A DNA stretch of 64,000 nt, from NCBI RefSeq assembly GCF_055900595.2, contig NZ_JBVWEU010000002.1; one strand, given 5' to 3'. The translations under genes were made by a program, and so were the position numbers. Shown piece after piece: positions 4,199 to 22,357 of the stretch (its first letter is position 1; the number at the start of each line of letters is the position of its first letter). This DNA is from a plasmid. The notes beneath the pieces are model-generated. The model saw nothing but the letters and a program-made list of their open reading frames with translations. It was not told where the DNA came from and searched no databases.

Positions 4199-4821
4199 GC
4201 TTAGTCAGCCGTTGTCTCCGGGTGTCGCGTGCGCAGTTGCACGTCATTCTCAGACGAACCGATGACTGGAAAGATGGTCGCCGCAGCCGTCACTCCGATA
4301 ATACGGATGTGCTTCTCCGTATACACCATGTTATCGGAGAGCTGCCCACGTATGGTTATCGTCGGGTATGGGCGCTGCTTCGCAGACAGGCCGAACTTGA
4401 TGGTATGCCTGCGATCAATGCCAAACGTGTTTACCGGATCATGCGCCAGAATGCGCTGTTGCTTGAGCGAAAAACCGCTGTACCGCCATCGAAGCGGGCA
4501 CATACTGGCAAAGTGGCCGTGAAAGAAAGCAATCAACGATGGTGCTCTGACGGGTTCGAGTTCCGCTGTGATAACGGAGAAAAACTGCGAGTCACGTTCG
4601 CGCTGGACTGCTGTGACCGTGAGGCACTGTACTGGGCGGTCACTACGGGCGGCTTCGACAGTGAAACAGTACAGGACGTCATGCCAGGAGCGGTGGAACG
4701 CCGCTTCGGCAACGAGCTTCCGGCGTCTCCAGTAGAGTGGCTGACGGATAATGGTTCATGCTACCGGGCTAATGAAACACGGCAGTTTGCCCGGATGTTG
4801 GGGCTTGAACCGAAGAACACA
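4156..4821 (+). pseudogene. insD: IS2 transposase OrfB (InsD), truncated after about 222 codons
   Basis: [34 protein letters not shown] matches InsD; the frame then continues in-frame into unrelated ABC-transporter sequence. Confidence 0.8.
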
Positions 4822-7639: not shown

Positions 7640-8486
<847 letters not shown>

Positions 8487-9095
8487 TAATTACACTGTGG
8501 GTTGACGCCGGAAGAATCAGAGAACAGATACCGTTCTTACTGTAAAACGTGGCTAATATTAATTGAGCACTGCAGTGTTCAGAGCACAAAGAAGAAAAAA
8601 GATGTGTGCGAATGCCTGTAATGTGTTAAAAGAATGTTCCGCGTTTCCGGTACGCTTTTCGTAACTAACAATGCAGGGTGACGTAACGCTGGTTGTGCCG
8701 GAAACGCGTCCCTCCCCCTATCTTTCCTGTTTGGATTTGCCCCTATATTTCTGGATTATCCGACAAAACCGGCGTGAAGTATTACTCTCGTCGCCCAGCA
8801 CCATAAGGATAACGCCCATAAAATCATGAAACTTTTCTTCCAGATTGGATACAATCAGGCCGAAACGGTGATGAATATTATCCAAATCTGATGGTTCGTA
8901 GCGTTTTCAGCCCCCAGATTCTGAGTTGCCTGTAGGGATGATTTCAATTCCCGATTTGTCTATCGCATAGAGAAAAAGAATTTCATTTCTGTTCACCAGA
9001 ACCCATGTAACCCACTCCAATTCGTTATTTATCTCACTGATTGCCCTTCATTTATCTCATTGATGCACCGAAAGGTAAAACTGCCATCCGGTGCA

Positions 9096-10025
9096 TCACG
9101 CTCGATGCATCAAATCCTGATAAATCCCCGTCAGTATTCCTTGTAAGCTAAATTCTCTTTTTATCCACTGAGTGACTTGACCGCTTGCCGAATGCCTGGT
9201 TGCCAACAGCATTCGTGAATCCTGACGTGGGTTGTGGATCTGCCGTGTCACCAGCAATGACTTTTCCATCGCTTCACGCACCATATAGTCTGGCAGAAAA
9301 CCGATTCCCTCCCCCAAGATCTGGCACTGAAGCTTAGTATTAAAGTCGGGAACCAGAATCGACTCTTGCCCGTGTAACAGCCAGCCGACTTTTTTGTTTA
9401 TAGTGTTTGCAGTGTCTTCCACCATGATGTTCGGGTACAGACGTAACTGACTCTCAGAAATGGGCTCAGGAATAAACGCCAGCGGATGAGCCGGAGAAAT
9501 CGCGAACAACCAACGAATCATGCCGATTTCAATGTAATCAATTCCACCACCGTCCAGTAACGTATCGGGCGCGCCAATGGCGATATCAGCCTGGTTATTA
9601 ATGAGTGAATCCCAGACGCCATTATACACCTCTGTAGTAATAGCTATCTGGCAGGTTGGAAAGTGTTCCCTGAGCACTTGCAGAAGCCGAGCTGTATGCT
9701 GAGGGGTATACAACAGTTGATTAATACAAATGCGCACCCGGGATTTAATTCCCTGAGCGATGGCATCAACTCTACGTATGATGGAGTGGTAATCGTTGAG
9801 CAGGTCAGTTGCTTTGCAAAAAAGGTAGTGCCCGGGCTCGGTCAGCTCAATGCTACGGGTAGTTCGGGTAAAAAGCACCACGTCAAGCCCCATTTCCATA
9901 CGCTTGATAGTGTAACTAATTGCCGATGTGGTTAAGCCCAGTTCCTTCGCCGCCTTGCTGAAACTTCTATAGCGGGCAGCCATAGTAAATGCCAGTAAGT
10001 TTTCTTCCGTAAATATTGAATTCAT
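9096..10025 (-). CDS. LysR-family transcriptional regulator (YahB-like)
   Basis: HTH motif FSKAAKELGLTTSAISYTIKRMEMGLDVVLF; start placed at the internal ATG (MNSIFTEENLL) rather than the 352-aa extended ORF. Confidence 0.8.
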   Translation of the reverse strand: MNSIFTEENLLAFTMAARYRSFSKAAKELGLTTSAISYTIKRMEMGLDVVLFTRTTRSIELTEPGHYLFCKATDLLNDYHSIIRRVDAIAQGIKSRVRICINQLLYTPQHTARLLQVLREHFPTCQIAITTEVYNGVWDSLINNQADIAIGAPDTLLDGGGIDYIEIGMIRWLFAISPAHPLAFIPEPISESQLRLYPNIMVEDTANTINKKVGWLLHGQESILVPDFNTKLQCQILGEGIGFLPDYMVREAMEKSLLVTRQIHNPRQDSRMLLATRHSASGQVTQWIKREFSLQGILTGIYQDLMHRA

Positions 10026-10412
10026 CTTTCTTTCCTCTGGCGACAATACACATACACAACATGATGATTGTTGAATGTATTTGTAATTCTTATAACCGAC
10101 AATCAGTTTTGAAAAAACTAACACCGTATTTACATTTAATTTGAAGGAAATCACACATCTGAATTTTAATTACAGGCAGCTATCCGTGCTGCAGACCACC
10201 TTTATTTATATGACTGCGGATTAATGGCTAAAATATCCCCAGCTATAATAGAAATATTGCACTATATCACACTCTCTTATTATTGTTAATTTTGTTTCAA
10301 TAATTCATGGTCTAATGATGAGTAAATTTTAAATGGATGGTGCTCTATGCATTCTGTTGCTATTCTTGGCTTGTTATATTTGTAAAATCTTAAAAAGAGC
10401 AGGAGATCGATT

Positions 10413-11018
10413 ATGTCCAATAAAGAACTCATTACAGAATTTCTGCTGGCGGCAGAACAAGGTAATTCCGATGGATTAAAATCATGCCTTGATAAAAAGG
10501 TTGATATTAATGCGACTAACCGCGAGGGGCGTACTGCAATTATTATTGCCAGTCTGAATAAACATTATGACTGCGTTTCTTTATTGATTTCCGCAGGTGC
10601 TGATATTAATAAACAAGATCAAACTTGTTTTAATCCCTTCCTGATTGGCTGCCTGAATAATGATTTAACACTGTTGCGTACGGTATTACCGGCTAACCCC
10701 GACCTTAATTGCCTAACCCGTTTTGGCGGTGTTGGTATTACACCTGCCTGCGAAAAAGGCCATGTCGAGATTGTACGTGAATTGCTGATGCGTACTGATA
10801 TCAATGTCAACCATACTAATTTTGTTGGCTGGACGCCGCTCCTAGAGGCCATCGTGCTGAATGACGGCGGTGAAAAGCAGCAGGAGATCGTCAAACTGTT
10901 GCTTGAGCATGGCGCAAACCCGCACATGACGGATAAATACGGTAAAACCCCGCTGGAGCTGGCGCGAGAAAAAGGCTACCACAAAATTGCCGAGTTGCTG
11001 ATTTCGGCTGGAGCCTGA
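10413..11018 (+). CDS. ankyrin-repeat protein (YahD-like)
   Basis: 201 aa with repeated ankyrin motifs (GRTAIIIASLNKHYDCVSLLISAGADIN; GWTPLLEAIV...LLLEHGANPH; GKTPLELAREKGYHKIAELLISAGA). Confidence 0.8.
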   Translation: MSNKELITEFLLAAEQGNSDGLKSCLDKKVDINATNREGRTAIIIASLNKHYDCVSLLISAGADINKQDQTCFNPFLIGCLNNDLTLLRTVLPANPDLNCLTRFGGVGITPACEKGHVEIVRELLMRTDINVNHTNFVGWTPLLEAIVLNDGGEKQQEIVKLLLEHGANPHMTDKYGKTPLELAREKGYHKIAELLISAGA

Positions 11019-11103
11019 CAACAGGAGCACGATTATCGCTATATTATCACGGCAATCTTTTCGGGCACTAACCGCAGACTGCGCGTTTCTCACTTTTCGG
11101 GGA

Positions 11104-11952
11104 ATGGGCCAGGTTGAACAGGTTTTTTCCCATGCGGTAAATCTGTTAATACCTGAACAGCAGCGACTGCTGACGTTACTGAGTGAGGATTGTGATAACG
11201 CACCTAACAGTTGTCGTTTAGCACTGACACATTATGAAGACCTTTTTCACCCCGGTGAACAGGTCAATTTTAGCGGGTCTGGAATAACTGTTGGAAATGA
11301 TAAATGGATAGAAATAACCGGTTGTCAGATGTGGCGAATACCACGGTGGACATCTGATTCAGCAAGCCTTGCCAAAGTCGGCTGGCAGCATTGGGAAGAG
11401 TTTATCCGCCAACAACTAAGAAGCAACGACACATTATTTCTGTACCAGGGTGACAATCCATTTTATCAGGAAATTTCTCGCCAATTACTCAACCGCCGAA
11501 AAAATTTGCTGAAGGCGTTGTGTACAGGAGAAAACATCACTGCGGCAGTCAACCAGTTAATTGGTCTTGGAATAGGGCTGACGCCATCATCGGATGATTA
11601 TTTAGTAGGTTTAAGCACTATTTTATTTATTCAAGGACATCCACTAAGGAAGTATAGATACGATTTCTTAGCAGCATTACAACTTGCAGGAAATAACATA
11701 ACGCTTCTCAGCAAAATAACGTTAGAGGAAGCATTTAATCAGCGTTATCGGGAAAGAGTCGGACGGCTACTGAACCAATTTATTACTGAGCCACAACCCA
11801 TTTCTACGCAATATGTTACTGACATAAAAAATATAGGCTCAAGTTCTGGATGCGACATGCTGTATGGCATGGCGGATGCCTGCGCCCTGAGCCACAGGTC
11901 CGGAGGTAATTATGTCAATCAGGATAGTTGTAAAAAAAAACACGTATTTTGA
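11104..11952 (+). CDS. YlbF/YahE-family protein (DUF2877-like)
   Basis: 282-aa ORF overlapping the downstream FdrA-family gene by 41 nt; position and size match yahE in the E. coli yah cluster as recalled. Confidence 0.6.
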   Translation: MGQVEQVFSHAVNLLIPEQQRLLTLLSEDCDNAPNSCRLALTHYEDLFHPGEQVNFSGSGITVGNDKWIEITGCQMWRIPRWTSDSASLAKVGWQHWEEFIRQQLRSNDTLFLYQGDNPFYQEISRQLLNRRKNLLKALCTGENITAAVNQLIGLGIGLTPSSDDYLVGLSTILFIQGHPLRKYRYDFLAALQLAGNNITLLSKITLEEAFNQRYRERVGRLLNQFITEPQPISTQYVTDIKNIGSSSGCDMLYGMADACALSHRSGGNYVNQDSCKKKHVF

Positions 11953-13459
11953 TTCTGTTTCACTGATGTCTATCTCCACGCGCGCAAATAAGCTTGATGG
12001 AGTTGAGCAGGCATTTGTTGCTATGGCGACAGAGATGAATAAGGGGGTGCTGAAGAATCTCGGTCTGCTGACCCCTGAGCTGGAAGAGGCGAAAAGTGGC
12101 GATCTGATGATTGTCATTAAAGGTACCAGCGAGGAGGCGAACGAGCGGACGCTAATAGCGATTGATGAGCTGTTTGCGCATAAAGAACAGGGAGGCCAGC
12201 ACGAAGCACGCTATGCCACGATTGCCAGTGCGAAGAAGCATGCTCCAGAGAGTAATCTGGCGGTGATCTCTGTCAATGGCCTGTTTGCTGCTCGTGAAGC
12301 TCGTCAGGCACTACAAAATAACCTCAATGTTATGCTGTTTTCTGACAACGTCTCTCTTGAGGACGAGCTGGAACTCAAGCATCTGGCACATGAAAAAGGG
12401 TTGTTGATGATGGGGCCTGATTGTGGAACCGCCATCATTAACGGCGCAGCGTTGTGTTTTGGCAATGCAGTGCGTCGCGGCAACATCGGAATCATTGGTG
12501 CCTCCGGTACGGGTAGCCAGGAGCTGAGCGTACGCATTCACGAATTTGGCGGCGGGATTTCCCAGCTGATTGGGACAGGTGGACGCGATATGAGTGAAAA
12601 AATTGGCGGCCTGATGATGCTTGACGCGATTAGCATGCTGGAGGCCGATCCACAAACTGAGATCATTACGCTTATATCCAAACCTCCTGCACCAGCGGTA
12701 GCCCGTAAGGTGCTGGAACGTGCGCGCACCTGTCACAAGCCTGTGGTGGTGTGTTTCCTCGGACGTGAGTCCACCCCTGCGGATGAAGAAGGCCTACAGT
12801 TTGCCCGCGGTACTAAAGAGGCTGCCTTGAAAGCGGTACTGTTGACTGGTGTGAAAAAAGAGAGTCTGGATTTGCATCCGCTCAACTGGCAGCTGATTGA
12901 AGAGGTTCGCTCCCGTCTGACTCCACAACAAAAGTATATCCGTGGCCTGTTCTGTGGTGGCACGTTATGCGATGAAGCGATGTTTACTGCCATGGAAAAA
13001 CTCTCGGATGTGTATAGCAATATTCACCCGAATCCGGCGTTCCGCCTTACAGATCTCAACCGTAGCGTGGCGCATACCTTCCTCGATTTCGGCGATGATT
13101 ATTTTACCAACGGCAAACCACATCCGATGATCGATCCCACCAATCGCATTACCCGGCTCTTGCAGGAAGCACAGGATCCTGAAGTTGGCGTGATCGTGAT
13201 GGACTTCATTCTTGGATTTGGATCACATGAAGATCCGGTTGGAGTGATGCTGGATACAATTGTTGAAGCCAAAGAAATTGCTGCCGCAGACGGTCGCCCG
13301 CTTGAGATCCTCGGCTATGTGCTGGGAACCGACCTTGATACACCGTCGCTGAAAAAACAGTGTCAGATGTTGACCGATGCCGGGGTTATTTGGGCAAGCA
13401 GTAGCACCAACACCGGATTACTGGCACGTGAATTTATATTTAAAGGGGAGGAAGGCTGA
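11912..13459 (+). CDS. FdrA-family protein (YahF-like)
   Basis: 515 aa with CoA-ligase-like glycine-rich motifs (MMGPDCGTAIINGA, GNIGIIGASGTGSQE); length equals E. coli YahF as recalled. Confidence 0.75.
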   Translation: MSIRIVVKKNTYFDSVSLMSISTRANKLDGVEQAFVAMATEMNKGVLKNLGLLTPELEEAKSGDLMIVIKGTSEEANERTLIAIDELFAHKEQGGQHEARYATIASAKKHAPESNLAVISVNGLFAAREARQALQNNLNVMLFSDNVSLEDELELKHLAHEKGLLMMGPDCGTAIINGAALCFGNAVRRGNIGIIGASGTGSQELSVRIHEFGGGISQLIGTGGRDMSEKIGGLMMLDAISMLEADPQTEIITLISKPPAPAVARKVLERARTCHKPVVVCFLGRESTPADEEGLQFARGTKEAALKAVLLTGVKKESLDLHPLNWQLIEEVRSRLTPQQKYIRGLFCGGTLCDEAMFTAMEKLSDVYSNIHPNPAFRLTDLNRSVAHTFLDFGDDYFTNGKPHPMIDPTNRITRLLQEAQDPEVGVIVMDFILGFGSHEDPVGVMLDTIVEAKEIAAADGRPLEILGYVLGTDLDTPSLKKQCQMLTDAGVIWASSSTNTGLLAREFIFKGEEG

Positions 13460-14877
13460 TGAGCCAGACACTGTTTAATCAGCCGCTGAACGTTATTAAT
13501 GTCGGTATCGAAATGTTCAGCGATGACATGAAAAAGCAGAATGTACCGGTAACCCAACTTGACTGGACACCGCCAGGCCAAGGAAACATACAAGTGGTAA
13601 CGGCACTGGACGACATTGCCGCTTCACCACTGGCAGACAAAATTGCAGCTGCTAATCAGCTGGCGCTGGAACGCATTATCCAGTCGCATCCTGTGCTAAT
13701 TGGCTATGATCAGGCGATCAACGTCGTGCCGGGTATGACCCGTAACACTATCCTTCACGCCGGGCCGCCAATCCACTGGGAAAAAATGTGCGGCGCAATG
13801 AAGGGCGCAGTAACCGGGGCTCTGGTATTTGAAGGACTGGCGAAAGATCTGGATGATGCCGCCGAACTAGCTGCTTCAGGTGAAATCATCTTCTCTCCGT
13901 GCCACGAACATGACTGTGTCGGCTCAATGGCGGGTGTCACGTCTGCATCGATGTTTATGCACATCGTCGAGAACAAAACCTATGGAAACCGCGCATATAC
14001 CAATATGAGCGAGCAGATGGCAAAGATCCTGCGTATGGGCGCTAACGACCAGAGCGTTATAGAGCGTCTTAACTGGATGCGAGATGTACTGGGACCTATG
14101 TTGCGCGATGCTATGAAGCTGGCGGGCGAAATCGATCTGCACTTGATGTTAGCGCAGGCGCTGCATATGGGCGATGAGTGCCATAACCGCAACAACGCCG
14201 GGACGGCGCTGCTGATTCAGACGCTGACGCCGTGGATTATTCAGACTGGCTACCCTGTTGAGCAGCAGCGTGAGGTGTTCGAGTTTGTCCTCAGTAGTGA
14301 TTACTTCTCAGGACCAACATGGATGGCAATGTGTAAAGCCGCAATGGACGCTGCGCACGGCATTGAATACAGCACCGTGGTGACAACGATGGCACGCAAT
14401 GGTGTTGAGTTCGGTCTTCGTATTAGCGGTTTGCCGGGCCAGTGGTTTACCGGTCCGGCGCAGCAGGTGATTGGGCCGATGTTTGCGGGCTATAAGCTAG
14501 AGGATTCCGGACGTGATATCGGTGATAGTGCAATTACCGAAACCTACGGCGTTGGCGGTTTCGCTATGGCGACGGCACCAGCTATTGTGTCACTGGTGGG
14601 CGGAACAGTTGAGGAAGCTATTGATTTCTCACGTAAAATGAGAGAAATCACTCTCGGAGAAAACCCCAACGTCACCATTCCCCTGCTTGGTTTTATGGGC
14701 GTACCGACCGCTATCGATATTACACGTGTAGGCAGTACAGGCATTCTGCCGGTAATTAACACAGCCATTGCGCACAAAGACGCAGGGATCGGCATGATCG
14801 GCGCAGGAATTGTTCACCCGCCGTTCACTTGTTTTGAAAAGGCGATCCTCAACTGGCGTGACCACTACTGCCAATAA
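13459..14877 (+). CDS. YlbE/YahG-family protein (DUF1116-like)
   Basis: 472 aa; start codon overlaps the upstream stop (ATGA); length equals E. coli YahG as recalled. Confidence 0.7.
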   Translation: MSQTLFNQPLNVINVGIEMFSDDMKKQNVPVTQLDWTPPGQGNIQVVTALDDIAASPLADKIAAANQLALERIIQSHPVLIGYDQAINVVPGMTRNTILHAGPPIHWEKMCGAMKGAVTGALVFEGLAKDLDDAAELAASGEIIFSPCHEHDCVGSMAGVTSASMFMHIVENKTYGNRAYTNMSEQMAKILRMGANDQSVIERLNWMRDVLGPMLRDAMKLAGEIDLHLMLAQALHMGDECHNRNNAGTALLIQTLTPWIIQTGYPVEQQREVFEFVLSSDYFSGPTWMAMCKAAMDAAHGIEYSTVVTTMARNGVEFGLRISGLPGQWFTGPAQQVIGPMFAGYKLEDSGRDIGDSAITETYGVGGFAMATAPAIVSLVGGTVEEAIDFSRKMREITLGENPNVTIPLLGFMGVPTAIDITRVGSTGILPVINTAIAHKDAGIGMIGAGIVHPPFTCFEKAILNWRDHYCQ

Positions 14878-14989
14878 CAATAACCGGGGCTAACGCAGTT
14901 AGCCCCACAGTAGCGGAAAACGTTGTTTACCTTCAGGGCTGGGCGATCTCCATGATCGCAAACGATGCTTAACCTGTTAAGGAGATTCC

Positions 14990-16540
14990 ATGAACAGCAT
15001 AAAACTAGAATGGAAACGTGGTGACTGGGCGGCTTACTTTGGACTGATGACCAACAATCTGACTAACCTGCTGACAATGATGGGTCTGCTAATTTTTGTC
15101 GTCGGAATCCCTACTGAAATTGTCTATGGACGCATTGCGCCTGCCTTTGGTCTTGCAGTGCTGGCGGCCAGTGTCTGCTACTCCTGGTTTGGTCTACAGA
15201 TGGTGAAGAAAACCGGTCGTAGCGATGTAACGGCGCTGCCGTCTGGACCGAGCGCACCCTCAATCTTTACCGTGACATTCCTGGTGCTGATGCCGGTTTA
15301 TCAGCAAACCAAAGATGCCAACTTTGCTATTCAGATAGGATTGGTGTGGTGCTTTGTCGAAGCGTTGATCCTGGTCGGTGGCTCCTTCCTGGGTGAGACT
15401 ATCCGCAAGATGATCCCGCGTACAGTGCTGCTTTCTTGTCTGTCCGGACTGGGGTTATTACTGCTGGCAATGAACCCGATGCTGCAAGCGTTCGAAGCGC
15501 CGACAGTTTCTTTCATCGTCCTGTTATTGATCTTCATTAACTGGTTCGGTAAGAAGCCGATTTTTCCCCATATTCCTACCGGTTTGCTGTTGCTGATTGC
15601 TGGTACGTCCCTAGCGTGGATATCCGGTTTACAAAGCCCGGAAGACATTAAAGCGTCGATGTCTTCCTTCGGCTTCAACCCGCCGGAAATTCATGTAAGG
15701 AGCTTCCTGCAAGGTTTGCCGCACGCTCTGCCATATCTGGCTTCTGCAGTTCCTTTGGGCCTGGCTAACTACATTTTTGACCTCGAGAACATTGAAAGTG
15801 CGCACGCGGCTGGTGATGAATACAACACCCGTAAGGTCATGATGGCGAACGGCTTTGCCTCCATGCTCGGTTGCATGCTGGGTAATCCGTTCCCGGTAAC
15901 CGTATATGTTGGGCATGCAGGCTGGAAAGCTATGGGCGCTAGTATCTGCTATACCCTCGCATCAGGCATCACTATGTTCCTGGTGCCATTGTTTGGGTTG
16001 GGCGCGTTTATGCTCGCCATTATTCCCATGACTGCTATAGTGCCAATTCTGGTTTTTATCGGTGTGGTAACCGCCAATCAGGTGGTGCGAGAAACTCCTA
16101 AAGTCGAGGTTCCCGTCATTTTCATCTGTCTGTTCCCATGGGTCGCCAACTGGGCATTGACCATCGTTAACAGCGTGATGGGCGCAGCCGGAACATCCGC
16201 TGAGAAACTTGGTAGCGACCTGTTGCACAGCAAAGGCGTCTATTACGATGGACTGATGCATCTGGGAAGCGGTGCACCGCTGGCCAGCATGCTGTGGGGA
16301 TGCATTGCTATCTTTGCCATTATGAATAAGCCGCTGCGCGGGGCGATAGCTGCATCCTTTGGAGCACTGTTATCGCTGTTTGGCGTGATTCACTCCCCAG
16401 CGGTTGGCTTTGCGGAAGGCAGCTCGATTGTGTTTGTTGTGGCCTACCTGATGATGCTTGCTATGTTTGCCCTCAAGCATGTTATTGATAGCCGTGAAAC
16501 AGTGGCTGCGTCTGAGCAGGAAGAGACTAAAACGACCTGA
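14990..16540 (+). CDS. polytopic membrane permease (possibly NCS2/AzgA-like)
   Basis: 516 aa with many hydrophobic segments; sits between yahG-like and carbamate kinase genes; family assignment tentative. Confidence 0.6.
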   Translation: MNSIKLEWKRGDWAAYFGLMTNNLTNLLTMMGLLIFVVGIPTEIVYGRIAPAFGLAVLAASVCYSWFGLQMVKKTGRSDVTALPSGPSAPSIFTVTFLVLMPVYQQTKDANFAIQIGLVWCFVEALILVGGSFLGETIRKMIPRTVLLSCLSGLGLLLLAMNPMLQAFEAPTVSFIVLLLIFINWFGKKPIFPHIPTGLLLLIAGTSLAWISGLQSPEDIKASMSSFGFNPPEIHVRSFLQGLPHALPYLASAVPLGLANYIFDLENIESAHAAGDEYNTRKVMMANGFASMLGCMLGNPFPVTVYVGHAGWKAMGASICYTLASGITMFLVPLFGLGAFMLAIIPMTAIVPILVFIGVVTANQVVRETPKVEVPVIFICLFPWVANWALTIVNSVMGAAGTSAEKLGSDLLHSKGVYYDGLMHLGSGAPLASMLWGCIAIFAIMNKPLRGAIAASFGALLSLFGVIHSPAVGFAEGSSIVFVVAYLMMLAMFALKHVIDSRETVAASEQEETKTT

Positions 16541-16566
16541 ATAGCCTGCAAACGGAAGATAATTCT

Positions 16567-17529
16567 ATGAAAGAACTTGTGGTCGTTGCCATTGGTGGCA
16601 ACAGCATTATCAAAGATAACGCCAGCCAGTCGATTGAGCATCAGGCGGAGGCGGTGAAGGCCGTCGCCGATACGGTTCTGGAAATGCTGGCTTCCGATTA
16701 CGACATTGTGCTGACCCACGGCAACGGGCCGCAGGTCGGTCTGGATTTACGCCGCGCGGAGATAGCCCACGAGCGCGAAGGGCTACCCTTAACGCCGCTG
16801 GCGAACTGTGTGGCGGATACGCAAGGCGGCATTGGCTATCTGATCCAGCAGGCGCTGAACAACCGGCTGGCGCCTCACGGCGAGAAAAAAGCCGTCACCG
16901 TGGTGACTCAGGTGGAAGTGGATAAAAACGATCCGGGGTTTGTCCATCCCACCAAGCCCATCGGTGCATTCTTTAGTGAAAACCAGCGTGATGAACTACA
17001 AAAGGCAAACCCTGACTGGCGTTTTGTTGAAGATGCCGGACGGGGCTATCGCCGCGTGGTCGCCTCGCCGGAACCGAAACGTATTGTCGAAGCACCTGCC
17101 ATTAAGACTCTGATCCAGCAAGGCTTTGTGGTGATTGGCGCGGGCGGCGGTGGCATTCCGGTGGTGCGTACTGACGCAGGGGATTACCAAAGCGTGGACG
17201 CGGTTATCGACAAAGATCTCTCTAGCGCGCTACTGGCTCGCGAAATTCACGCCGACATTCTGGTGATCACCACCGGCGTGGAAAAAGTGAGTATTCATTT
17301 TGGGAAACCCAACCAGCATGCACTGGATACAGTGGATGTCCTAACGATGGCCCGTTACATGCAGGAGGGTCACTTCCCGCCTGGGAGTATGTTACCGAAG
17401 ATTCTTGCCAGTCTGGAGTTCCTGGAACGTGGAGGTAAAAGAGTGATTATCACCACGCCTGAATGCCTGTCCGCGGCACTGCGTGGCGAAACAGGCACCC
17501 ATATTATCCACTCCCAAGAGGAGACGTAA
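16567..17529 (+). CDS. carbamate kinase (ArcC/YahI-like)
   Basis: 320 aa; N-terminal motif VVVAIGGNSI and HGNGPQVG typical of carbamate kinase. Confidence 0.85.
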   Translation: MKELVVVAIGGNSIIKDNASQSIEHQAEAVKAVADTVLEMLASDYDIVLTHGNGPQVGLDLRRAEIAHEREGLPLTPLANCVADTQGGIGYLIQQALNNRLAPHGEKKAVTVVTQVEVDKNDPGFVHPTKPIGAFFSENQRDELQKANPDWRFVEDAGRGYRRVVASPEPKRIVEAPAIKTLIQQGFVVIGAGGGGIPVVRTDAGDYQSVDAVIDKDLSSALLAREIHADILVITTGVEKVSIHFGKPNQHALDTVDVLTMARYMQEGHFPPGSMLPKILASLEFLERGGKRVIITTPECLSAALRGETGTHIIHSQEET

Positions 17530-18316
17530 ATTAAGGAAAGCGACCGCCGCCGTGAATTTTTAATGTTCATTGCAGATTATCGTGGGCTGGAAATGATAAC
17601 GGTTGGGGAGTTATTGTTTAGTTGCTAAAACAGAACGATAACCAACCCCAACCGTTCTCAATTTCGAATACTATCTTTTCCATTTATCTCTGGATAGGCT
17701 TTGACGTCGTCCCTACTGAGTAAAATCCCCCTCATCATCCACCTAAAACCGATTGAAAACGGTCATTACTCTTGTGGCAAACAGGCTAAAGCCGTTCACG
17801 ATGCTTCACTTCGCACCTTATCGTAATGAACAATACTGGTATTTCCAGTTCAGTTACGCCTACCCGTCTACCGCATTCTTTGCCCTAACTACGGCATAGT
17901 TCGGGATTATATCAGCTGGCTAAAGCCTTATGCTCATCAGACCACATGACTCATTGAGCATGTTGAGGCGTTACTCAAAATCTTGCCGATTAAACATATT
18001 TCGTAATTTCTTACCCTGCACTAGCATATCATCAATACTATCGACAAACGTCAGTTGCAAATAGAGGTCACAGGGTCTGATTGATGTACTGCCAAGGCCG
18101 GGTCATGAAAGAGTTTGCCCTGTTCAAAGCTCATCGTTACGCACCGTCGTAGCCGATGCGGATACTCATCAATCCTCTGGATAGGTGAGGTGCGTAGTAG
18201 AGAAGCTCGGTCGTTTTTCGTTAATCTGAATCAGTACTGTCAACATATTCAAGTCGTTAATATGGATATGAATACCTCCTTTGACCTAGAGGTACAGATG
18301 CACTACCCCCCAAGCT

Positions 18317-18338
18317 GTCAACGACGGATGAAAAGTGG
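18317..18338 (+). repeat. orphan 22-bp copy of the IS100 left terminal repeat
   Basis: tgtcaacgacggatgaaaagtg is identical to the first 22 bp of the IS100 copy at 20039; flanking sequence is unrelated. Confidence 0.45.
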
Positions 18339-18626
18339 CTCTTCCGCAACCTGGATGGAGATTTTCATGCCAGTGGACTCATGACCCTCTGCCTGAGTAG
18401 TTCAAATCCGGCTCGACCATACATCTGGCCTTTCAGCATTTTTAGCCAATTTACATGACTTTCGACACCCCCCATTATTCCAGCGACTGCTGATTGCCTC
18501 ACATATAGCCGCAGCATCAGCTGCCATCCTTGCAGCCACGCGCCGAAGTTACCACTTTCTCGTTGCTCTTTTAACCACTCCCTCCATGGGTCCAGAAGTC
18601 CTCACTCTGGAGGCCGGGTTGACATT

Positions 18627-19439
18627 TCAGGGAATGTTCCTGAACACACCCAGAGACTGTCTGTCACACGTGATAAGCCTGTAATACGGGATAAGCCTGT
18701 AATACGGGATATTTCCCCTGAACCCACATCCCTTGTTATGTAGTGCCATAACCTCTGTCCAACGCTGATGCCGTTTTTGGCGGGTTTGCTGTTTAAGGCG
18801 TTCCGGACGACGGAGCGATGCTACAGGCACAGACAGTACTGGCTTAGGTGATTTCTTTGGTGACAACCCACTGGCAACAAGACGTATCAGAGGCATCTGT
18901 CTGTACATCATTCGTTCAGGCGCATCGCCAATATTTTTTAGCCGGTGCCATCGAGCTGCTATCTGTCTGGCCTGAGGTGCACCTTCACGTGATGCTGTCG
19001 CATAGACTCCGCCACGGTCACATGAGACAACCTGTATTTCCGGATATTTTCTGAACCAGGTCGCCAGCGTACTCTGCTCGCAACCGGGAAGCAGGACGAG
19101 GGGACGGTGAGTATAAAGATTGACGATTAACGTACCGTAATGGTAGCCCCGATGCCACGCCCACTCATCAATACCGACATGAGGCGCGCCTGACTGTTTC
19201 GTCTCCGGGGTATTAATAACCCTGCGAAGAAGAGTATCAGCACTGCAACGGAGCCCCACTGCCGTTGCTGCCTGTTTCCCGGCCTCACCTCCGGCTATTA
19301 ATCCCAGTTGATGTTGTAAATTTTGTAACACCTGTGAAGAATGCTGGGAGTGAACCGGCGAAGGGGGCAAGCGACCCGGCAAAAATTTTACGTGAACAAG
19401 CCGGGTTACGGCAGTACCAGTGGCGGACGGAAAATACAA
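18627..19439 (-). pseudogene. ISL3-family transposase, truncated/frameshifted
   Basis: motifs HVGIDEWAWHRGYHYGTLIVNL, DRGGVYA and ARWHRLKN; N-terminal region out of frame and cut by IS1 at 19631; contains an 18-bp tandem duplication at 18672-18707. Confidence 0.6.
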
Positions 19440-19685
19440 GCCATAGCGTCTGCCCTGAGCAGGGTAGATGCTGTATCCGGCGCCGACGATAACTATGAAC
19501 AGAGTCGCTACGCTTAAAGCATTCAGGACTTGTGCTGTTTTGCGTTTTCCGTGGAGATGGAGGGTTATACCGTCAGAGCTAATAATTTGTCGACTGCATC
19601 TCCATCCGCAAGGTAACTGTAGAAGTGTCTGGTGATGCTGCCAACTTACTGATTTAGTGTATGATGGTGTTTTTGAGGTGCTCCA

Positions 19686-21992
<2,307 letters not shown>

Positions 21993-22342
21993 CTAAATCG
22001 CGCCAGCGCTGGCTGTTTTACGCGTATGACAGTCTCCGGAAGACGGTTGTTGCGCACGTATTCGGTGAACGCACTATGGCGACGCTGGGGCGTCTTATGA
22101 GCCTGCTGTCACCCTTTGACGTGGTGATATGGATGACGGATGGCTGGCCGCTGTATGAATCCCGCCTGAAGGGAAAGCTGCACGTAATCAGCAAGCGATA
22201 TACGCAGCGAATTGAGCGGCATAACCTGAATCTGAGGCAGCACCTGGCACGGCTGGGACGGAAGTCGCTGTCGTTTTCAAAATCGGTGGAGCTGCATGAC
22301 AAAGTCATCGGGCATTATCTGAACATAAAACACTATCAATAA
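21993..22342 (+). pseudogene. insB: IS1 InsB, C-terminal part (split by IS100)
   Basis: resumes in frame with [15 protein letters not shown]... immediately after the IS100 right end. Confidence 0.85.
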
Positions 22343-22357
22343 GTTGGAGTCATTACC

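Follow-up and report, generated by a model that had tools for sequence, protein, structure and literature searches.

How does a single end of the insertion sequence IS100 come to stand alone on a plasmid, 1.7 kb from an intact copy of the same element? The question arises in a 64,000-nucleotide stretch (the window, meaning the whole stretch analysed) of contig NZ_JBVWEU010000002.1 from assembly GCF_055900595.2, which belongs to a ColV/ColBM-type Escherichia coli plasmid and shares about 99.5% identity with p1ColV5155 over the region. The window has two exact copies of the 22-mer TGTCAACGACGGATGAAAAGTG, one at 18316-18337 and one at 20039-20060, which form a direct repeat with a start-to-start distance of 1723 bp, and dinucleotide-preserving shuffles of the window (n = 100) gave no match to it even with up to three mismatches. 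The copy at 20039-20060 is the outermost, istB-distal end of the intact IS100. An initial annotation had placed the lone copy at 18317-18338, between a carbamate kinase gene and a remnant of an ISL3-family element, called it the left terminus of IS100 and read it as the scar of an IS100-mediated deletion. The identity, the distance to the intact element and the location all hold, with the tip directly abutting the remnant; the coordinates are 18316-18337, and the end at 20039 is by the usual convention the right one (right inverted repeat, IRR, downstream of istB), “left” applying only in the orientation of the window. The opposite end (left inverted repeat, IRL) reads TGTCACGAACGGTGCAATAGTGATCCAC. 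In place of the scar, we consider it likely that a targeted insertion of an ISEc38-type ISL3 element into an IS100 end severed the tip, that a module of the ISL3 transposase directed this insertion, and that the IS100 body was lost by recombination.

Only 21 nt of the lone copy can be assigned to IS100, namely 18316-18336 on the plus strand (TGTCAACGACGGATGAAAAGT, the IRR tip), which are identical to 20039-20059. Counted from the TG tip, the identity to IRR extends over 21 (22) of 21 (22) nt, the 22nd base, a G at 18337, doubling as the first base of an ISL3-type inverted repeat, GGCTCTTCC. Past position 21 or 22 the sequence runs into this ISL3 repeat, with no continuation into the GATCCAC block, the inner repeat or istB/istA of IS100. 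The orphan tip therefore consists of the TGT tip and the outer GC-rich block, without the GATCCAC block and without the IS100 body. An IS100 end has the layout TGT-CAACGACGG / ATGAAAAGT / GATCCAC, in which the spacer is the octamer found duplicated in the insertions described below. In the orphan, this AT-rich target octamer, TGAAAAGT, lies at 18329-18336 on the plus strand, corresponding to positions 14-21 of the IS100 end, and only its outer copy is left here. Besides the orphan tip and the intact IS100, no further IS100 pieces were found in the window. Judged from its sequence, the lone 22-mer is a real orphaned IS100 terminus: an IS100 copy was once there, and the outer 21 nt of its right end are what is left.

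From 18337 onward, the window carries a typical ISL3-family inverted repeat, GGCTCTTCCGCAACC, followed by a frameshifted transposase pseudogene on the minus strand. The terminal inverted repeat itself (18337-18359, plus strand, GGCTCTTCCGCAACCTGGATGGA) is the core end near the 3′ end of the transposase gene and aligns with the core ends of all relatives. By blastn against an intact 1722-bp core from plasmid M8, the window holds a degenerate, frameshifted ISEc38-like core at 18337-19630 on the minus strand (90.7-92.0% identity), with core positions 1722-1510 at 18337-18550, positions 1163-1509 deleted and positions 1162-100 at 18549-19630. The insertion sequence IS1, which meets the core at 19630/19631, removed the transposase-5′ end of the core (positions 1-99) together with the outer 21-mer. 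On the near-identical p1ColV5155, the Prokaryotic Genome Annotation Pipeline (PGAP) labels this core “ISL3 family transposase, frameshifted”. ISEc38 and the ISL3 family are characterised by GGCTCTT-type terminal inverted repeats and 8-bp duplications; repeats of this type are found at 18337-18359 in the window and at both ends of the relatives L002, L005 and others. The pseudogene also contains an 18-bp tandem duplication (CTGTAATACGGGATAAGC-like) at 18661-18696, which is absent from L002, a chromosomal island copy of the element without IS1.

The 21-mer of the window also abuts ISEc38 cores in L002, L005, L006, L114 and L115. A contig search with the ISEc38 transposase gave 78 loci, and of the enterobacterial relatives measured (full-length, 74-91% amino acid identity, both ends inside the locus), nearly all have 1721-1723 bp of core between the GG.TCTTCC repeats, with a few exceptions of 1701-1734 bp. 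Most of these relatives carry TGT-starting 21-mers exactly 21 nt outside the core that are either IRR-like (A) or IRL-like (B), and the arrangement of the two tips around the core varies between A/B, B/A, A/A and B/B; in L023 and L029 the core is placed instead in a second, inner repeat unit, following its A-rich stretch. The intact copy L005 on plasmid M8 is bounded by the IRR 21-mer of IS100 on one side and by the exact IRL 21-mer of IS100 on the opposite side, and a direct repeat, CATGG, lies outside them. Such 5-bp duplications outside the 21-mers were found in five independent A/B composites (CATGG, GCTCC, GGTGC, GTTTC and TGGTG), in none of which a duplication was seen at the core boundary inside the composite. 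The A/A composite L002 and the B/B composites L021 and L034 are without duplication. A BLAST search of 5426 complete E. coli genomes with the L002 element found ISEc38-like copies in 3381 of them at about 93% identity, and matches among independent copies reach precisely as far as the outer boundaries of the 21-mers. Of the same genomes, 4373 have matches to IS100 end sequences, a count that includes the ends of intact IS100. As a separate observation, in Serratia sp. AKBS12 (L081, 1349-1953) a C-terminal ISEc38-like transposase fragment adjoins the last 51 codons of an IS100-type istB (98% identical), which is another rearranged IS100/ISL3 junction.

To identify the origin of the 21-mers, IS100 relatives were collected by tblastn with IstA. 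An ISSen3-like element (L101, IstA 90% identical) has the ends TGTTACCAACGGTGCGAAAGT (IRL) and TGTCAACGACGGGTAAAAAGT (IRR), which match exactly both 21-mers of the ISL3 element of Citrobacter amalonaticus; a second ISSen3 (L102, 85%) matches exactly both 21-mers of the Enterobacter asburiae element; and in a third pair the IS100 ends equal both ISEc38 21-mers exactly. In ISKpn7, ISEc57 and a Pantoea element, homologous 21-mers are followed by GACCCAC-type blocks, and the inner repeats share the A-rich stretch and the block. Given these exact partner matches and the repeated L1/L2 structure of the ends, the 21-mers are therefore native IS21-family end structure, and the matches indicate that each ISL3 element carries the tips of its local IS21-family partner.

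If a core inserts into an IS21-type end, the order core, short duplication and GATCCA is expected; this prediction was set beforehand, and metagenome contigs were scanned for the pattern. We found five contigs with the predicted arrangement (L106-L110). In L108-110 the order is flank, IS100 positions 1-21, a 1722-bp core 99.9% identical to ISEc38, GCAATAGT, and IS100 positions 22-440; GCAATAGT flanks the core on both sides and is a second copy of IS100 positions 14-21 (IRL). L106 and L107 show the equivalent insertion in an ISSen3-like IRL with the duplication GCAAAACT, and on the chromosome of E. coli SMBL (L111) the core is followed by TGAAAAGT and then by GATCCACTT, the interior of the IS100 IRR. 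The mechanism is thus displayed by three independent intermediates. Duplications of 8 bp at the core ends are seen in L108-110 and also in Rhodococcus L040 (GTTTTTCA, within TGTCGGCGGACATGAAAAAC), in Rhodococcus L053 (ACGTAATT, in a repeated unit beside istA) and in Bryobacteraceae L049 (CAGATTAG, beside istA), the last being a distant classical relative with the duplication immediately at its core ends. In the window the inner octamer copy and the far end of the element are gone, so the 8-bp duplication is not visible there. Collectively, these results show that the ISEc38-type core is a classical 1722-bp ISL3 element with 8-bp duplications, that it very strongly prefers positions 14-21 within the terminal repeats of IS21-family elements, and that its insertion splits an IS21-type end into an outer 21-mer and the remainder.

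The locus L112 (NZ_CP058575.1, about 4490-4510), considered as an IRL single hit, was rejected as an IS26 truncation of IS100 at position 14/15; the use of ISEc38's spacer by the IS26 end is probably a coincidence. A scan of viral contigs with the 17-nt pattern AGTGGYTCTTCCGCAAC returned chance matches only, in unrelated coding repeats. Comparison of the ISL3 inverted repeat with IS100 subterminal sequence, as a possible mimic, gave a single 9-nt match, ATCTCCACC; its p value, about 0.004-0.016 if left uncorrected for the 48 tests made, is not significant.

A candidate for the targeting device is present in the transposase itself. The ISEc38 transposase (539 amino acids) consists of a Zn_ribbon_ISL3 domain and a DDE_Tnp_ISL3 domain split by an insertion of about 120 residues: profile positions 1-133 of DDE_Tnp_ISL3 correspond to residues 160-293 and positions 117-240 to residues ~414-534. 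In the protein of an intact relative, Pfam scores are 125 bits for DDE_Tnp_ISL3 and 28.7 bits for Zn_ribbon_ISL3, as expected of an ISL3-family transposase. Within the insertion, residues 301-389 align with residues 9-101 of IS100 IstA (33% identity, E 2e-11), and the only PDB sequence matches of the whole protein are to the IstA of IS5376 (8q4d, 8b4h; E 1.6e-10, residues 302-398 against IstA 10-107). A profile built from 25 diverse modules matched IstA residues 4-109 in the PDB with an E value of 9e-30. An AlphaFold (AF2) model of the module (mean confidence score, pLDDT, 85.7) shows two three-helix units, and a Foldseek search of the PDB with this model returned IstA chains as its top four matches, followed by bipartite domains including those of Pax, Tc3 and Mos1. 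On these alignments, the insertion is homologous to the N-terminal tandem helix-turn-helix (HTH) of IstA (residues ~1-105).

In IstA, residues 1-39 (HTH-1) and 55-104 (HTH-2) bind two conserved GC-rich blocks in each terminal repeat, with the linker occupying the minor groove of the ~10-bp AT-rich spacer between the blocks (PMC10122671). The IS5376 contact residues R31, T92 and K95 described in the same work (PMC10122671) align with R, T and R in ISEc38, as they do in IS100 IstA, and K32 is not conserved. The insertion point of ISEc38 is this spacer between the IstA-bound blocks; together with the homology of the module, this is why we propose the module as the targeting device. The captured module would dock the ISL3 transpososome on IS21-family repeats and so place the staggered cuts across the spacer.

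The module is not confined to close relatives of ISEc38. It was found in the long ISL3 relatives that could be assessed by tblastn, at 30-38% identity to the N-terminus of IS100 IstA, and the relatives that bear it come from Proteobacteria, Actinobacteria, Cyanobacteria, Acidobacteria and Chloroflexi. An exhaustive HMMER search with the module returned 381 cluster representatives at E ≤ 1e-10 and 2962 at E ≤ 1e-3; the larger figure is an upper bound, since IstA-type proteins may be among them. In a sample of ten top matches, nine had a Pfam match of transposase type, and all nine were ISL3-type; the top 150 matches are apparently mainly ISL3-type proteins or fragments. A homologous-protein search with the module alone returned only short fragments of these elements and was uninformative on IstA. 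Both the module and the association with IS21 ends are found in actinobacterial and acidobacterial relatives, and the cyanobacterial relatives carry the module, one of them with TGT-type flanks. Composites with TGT-starting 21-mers are seen in L044, L046, L050 and L089, L051 being a less clean case; in L054 both ends carry TGT-starting 20-mers, and L057, L068, L072 and L083 have one-sided TGT-mers. From this breadth we lean, with some reserve, towards the wider hypothesis that a widespread ISL3 subfamily captured an IS21-family tandem-HTH head inside its DDE domain and uses it to home into, split and inactivate IS21-family ends. The top representative of the search, P0090 (388 amino acids), combines an IstA-like N-terminal HTH (residues 9-40) with an ISEc38-type module (residues 221-344), and may be a chimeric reading frame called across an IS100::ISEc38 junction.

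Accordingly, we hypothesize the following sequence of events. An ISEc38 core would insert into the AT-rich spacer (positions 14-21) of the IS100 right end and separate the outer 21-mer; the IS100 body and the inner octamer would be lost later, either because ISL3 cores in both ends of an IS100 recombined with each other or because a core transposed intramolecularly into the second end. The resulting composite would consist of a 21-mer, the core and an inverted 21-mer, with the 5-bp duplication of the former IS100 outside. Recombination between composites of opposite core orientation would then give A/A and B/B products without duplications, and A/A and B/B products without duplications are what we observed, L002 and the window included. 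In L002 the far ISL3 end is followed by an inverted copy of the identical 21-mer, so that each end has an IRR-type tip, and the two flanks bear no relation to each other: no 5-bp duplication exists around the orphan lineage, this untruncated relative having CAAGC on one side and TTTGT on the other. The L002 flanks are never contiguous elsewhere, the right one being the interior of an IS481-family element and the left one occurring only in this island or plasmid context. The absence of a duplication and the unrelated flanks show that the ISEc38 element of the window underwent a rearrangement, for which recombination between ISEc38 copies is the best explanation. In the window, IS1 afterwards removed the far end of the element.

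Plasmid M8 (NZ_CP019954.1) offers a view of several copies at once. An intact ISEc38 core lies there at 95559-97280. In all, the plasmid carries three cores that are 100% identical and lie in IS100 shells; the orientation of the core within the shell differs between copies, which supports independent movement of the core. On the same plasmid, the two ISEc38 composites L114 (29885-31606) and L115 (5983-7704) have flanks exchanged by inversion, as reciprocal products; their flank pairing restores ATTAC, inside an ISEc12-type istA, and TCCCGG, the latter being 6 bp and thus one above the usual IS100 length. In related plasmids the CATGG site of M8 is occupied by a composite or is empty, an occupancy that does not separate the competing models.

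Several observations weigh against targeted insertion followed by loss of the body. In all 5426 complete E. coli genomes IS100 is absent from the window site, and single hits are scarce among them, with one of IRR type and none of IRL type. No IS100 with a core in each end was found, and the CATGG site of M8 never holds an IS100 in related plasmids, for which a one-step arrival of the composite is the simpler explanation. The flanks of L022 and L036 are not recognisable as IS21 ends, and the 21-mers were listed by eye for TGT starts. Finally, the proposal that the ~120-residue module would direct targeting to IS21-family ends is drawn from its homology and from the geometry of the insertion.

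The strongest alternative is that 21-mer, core and 21-mer form a mini-IS100 that is moved whole by resident IstA/IstB, with the window tip as one of its ends. The 5-bp duplications lie outside the 21-mers, just as they do with IS100; M8 has three composites and no IS100, and related plasmids are empty at the CATGG site; and an IS100 lying exactly against a composite 21-mer, with the duplication ACAGC, suggests that the IS100 machinery still recognises the tip. However, the 21-mers are without the GATCCAC block and the inner repeat that are engaged by the IstA tetramer (PMC10122671), and the core is found in both orientations within its shell, even among the identical copies of one plasmid. Furthermore, the ISL3 transposase is under purifying selection (dN/dS 0.07-0.13), which is unexpected for a passive passenger, and the single-hit intermediates together with inherited duplications suffice as an explanation. 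We therefore regard such trans-mobilisation as improbable, and note that it could act alongside targeted insertion. Both this model and the idea that the 21-mers are part of the ISL3 element were downgraded by the single hits with 8-bp duplications.

In the second of these models, the 21-mers would be the true outer ends of an ISL3 clade that cleaves at TGT tips and makes 5-bp duplications, the likeness to IS100 being secondary. BLAST matches between copies do take in the 21-mers, and the divergence of the 21-mers roughly follows that of the cores. Set against this, in the single hits it is the core by itself that has inserted, with an 8-bp duplication; co-divergence cannot produce tips that match both ends of each of three different IS21-family partners exactly; the arrangement of IRR-type and IRL-type tips is variable; and the 21-mer pattern belongs to the repeated L1/L2 structure of IS21-family ends. 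All of this makes native ends very unlikely.

The weakest reading, that an IS100-mediated adjacent deletion left the 22-mer as a scar and removed genes downstream of the carbamate kinase, could draw on the intact IS100 1.7 kb away and on a tip without target duplication between unrelated flanks, but is scarcely credible: the tip abuts the ISL3 inverted repeat exactly where every other ISEc38 copy has it, the IS100 close by inserted separately into IS1 and keeps an intact duplication of its own, native yah homology ends 757 bp further left, the junction is older than the plasmid and present on chromosomes, IS100 sequence continuing past position 22 at the site is found in 0 of 5426 genomes, and the intermediates of the site-specific ISEc38-type insertion that severed such tips keep the IS100 body and the 8-bp duplication.

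The intact IS100 (20039-21992, minus strand, 1954 bp; istA at 20884-21906, istB at 20105-20887), which supplied the reference copy of the 22-mer, sits inside IS1 with a 5-bp target duplication, CTAAA, at 20034-20038 and 21993-21997, and has no physical linkage to the orphan tip. IS1 (768 bp, plus strand, 19631-22357, from our reading of the sequence and the p1ColV5155 annotation) truncates the ISL3 core and is itself interrupted by this IS100. The arrangement of left flank, 21-mer and ISL3 core recurs at an identity of at least 99% in 147 records from 142 complete E. coli genomes, 46 chromosomal places included; the junction is therefore older than the plasmid of the window. The initial annotation had also considered that the 22-mer might belong to a longer conserved non-IS sequence. 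A longer unit is indeed conserved in related genomes, and it is made of IS sequence.

On the other side of the tip, the left flank (approximately 17840-18315, plus strand) is the decayed N-terminal remnant of a different ISL3-family transposase gene, whose stitched translation matches Pfam DDE_Tnp_ISL3 with 25.2 bits (cut-off 23); PGAP annotates a “transposase” pseudogene at 18102-18309 within it. Further left lies the carbamate kinase gene, a yahI paralogue at 16567-17529, with the last 30 bp that align to the native yahI-yahJ sequence (16567-17559 together, plus strand). The native chromosomal yahI-yahJ locus aligns with the window over 16567-17559 only, at 89-91% identity, and the break in yah homology at about 17559 is 757 bp left of the 21-mer and adjoins unassigned sequence, at 17560-17840, and the older ISL3 remnant. 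A deletion at the tip, which had been offered as the reason for the loss of genes downstream of the carbamate kinase, does not account for it, and the comparison with the intact chromosomal locus puts the loss of yahJ and beyond away from the 21-mer junction.

The yah-like cluster itself spans 8000-17529 of the window and encodes a LysR regulator, an ankyrin protein, DUF2877, fdrA, DUF1116, a 516-amino-acid protein and the carbamate kinase. It is found on ColV-type plasmids and on chromosomal islands (L001-L003 homology) with an identical downstream IS junction in both; its genes are intact in chromosomes, and several are pseudogenes on p1ColV5155. Just past the break in yah homology, at 17591-17663, lies an 18-nt inverted repeat (89% complementary, 37-nt loop).

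IS100 ends are met in other settings as well. In NZ_CM132215.1 (L099, 569-2549), the conserved chromosomal ISEc38 composite has an intact IS100 placed exactly against its IRR-type 21-mer, and the duplication of this IS100, ACAGC, is the 5 bp flanking the tip (ACATC in strain S88). The order IS100 IRL, 5 bp, 21-mer has the look of IS21-type tandem junctions and suggests that IS100 is still drawn to orphan tips. A 47-bp mini-IS100 in NZ_CP020514.1 (L098, 2501-2547), lying inside an IS3-family/HTH gene, has IRR positions 1-26 fused to the IRL tip (21 + GATCC + 21) with the duplication GACAG; a query of fused tips is matched over its full length in about 515 E. coli genomes, and a separate 69-bp mini-IS100 is found on a plasmid (L100, 2501-2569). 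The window resembles such solo ends, mini-IS and MITE-like (miniature inverted-repeat) IS100 derivatives in having a terminal IS100 fragment only. It differs from mini-IS100 in that the orphan tip is no internal-deletion derivative and stops precisely at position 21, where the ISL3 core begins.

Next we compared ISEc38 with known systems. IS4321 and IS5075, which belong to the IS110 family (IS1111 group), have a fixed insertion site within the 38-bp terminal inverted repeats of transposons of the Tn21 family, and the likeness to ISEc38 lies in a preferred target that is the terminal repeat of an unrelated element, hit at one fixed position, with the end disabled. Enzymes of the IS4321/IS5075 type are described as DEDD recombinases guided by a non-coding seekRNA or bridge RNA (PMC11187229). 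The ISEc38 enzyme, in contrast, is a DDE transposase of the ISL3 family with a classical 8-bp duplication, and what is proposed to target it is a protein module with homology to the DNA-binding head of the victim's transposase. The resemblance is functional only. With IstA (IS5376 structures 8b4h and 8q4d; IS100 IstA) the module shares the architecture of HTH-1, linker and HTH-2 as well as sequence. In IstA, however, the module precedes an rve-type DDE domain and recognises, as donor, the ends of the element that encodes it, whereas the ISL3 module is embedded in a different DDE fold and would recognise the ends of another element as target. From the ISL3 family in general, ISEc38 differs in belonging to a long-transposase subfamily (~500-570 amino acids) with a ~120-residue IstA-like tandem-HTH insertion in the DDE domain, found in IS21-family ends. 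In the literature searched, an incomplete selection that did not cover ISfinder, we came across neither a report of ISL3 elements inserting into IS21-family ends nor one of an IstA-like module within their transposases; judged by titles and abstracts, papers there that mention ISEc38 apparently do so only in surveys of mobile elements.

Taken together, these results identify the lone IS100 end of the window as an old, inherited by-product of nested insertion sequences, uninformative on the truncation of the yah-like cluster. In surveys of E. coli genomes, matches to ISEc38 are nearly always embedded in IS100 remains, and annotators who meet an ISL3 element flanked on each side by a 21-nt IS100 tip should take this as the mark of a targeted insertion. 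Terminal repeats of transposons are already known as targets of other insertion sequences, IS4321 and IS5075, but these use RNA-guided DEDD enzymes. If the module directs insertion, ISEc38 would be a natural case of a DDE transposase re-targeted by a foreign DNA-binding module within its catalytic domain, which would be relevant to the engineering of targeted transposases. If true, one insertion sequence would have become specialised as a parasite or killer of another, and the disabling of one IS family by another could affect the copy-number dynamics of IS21 and IS100 elements, for example on virulence and resistance plasmids.
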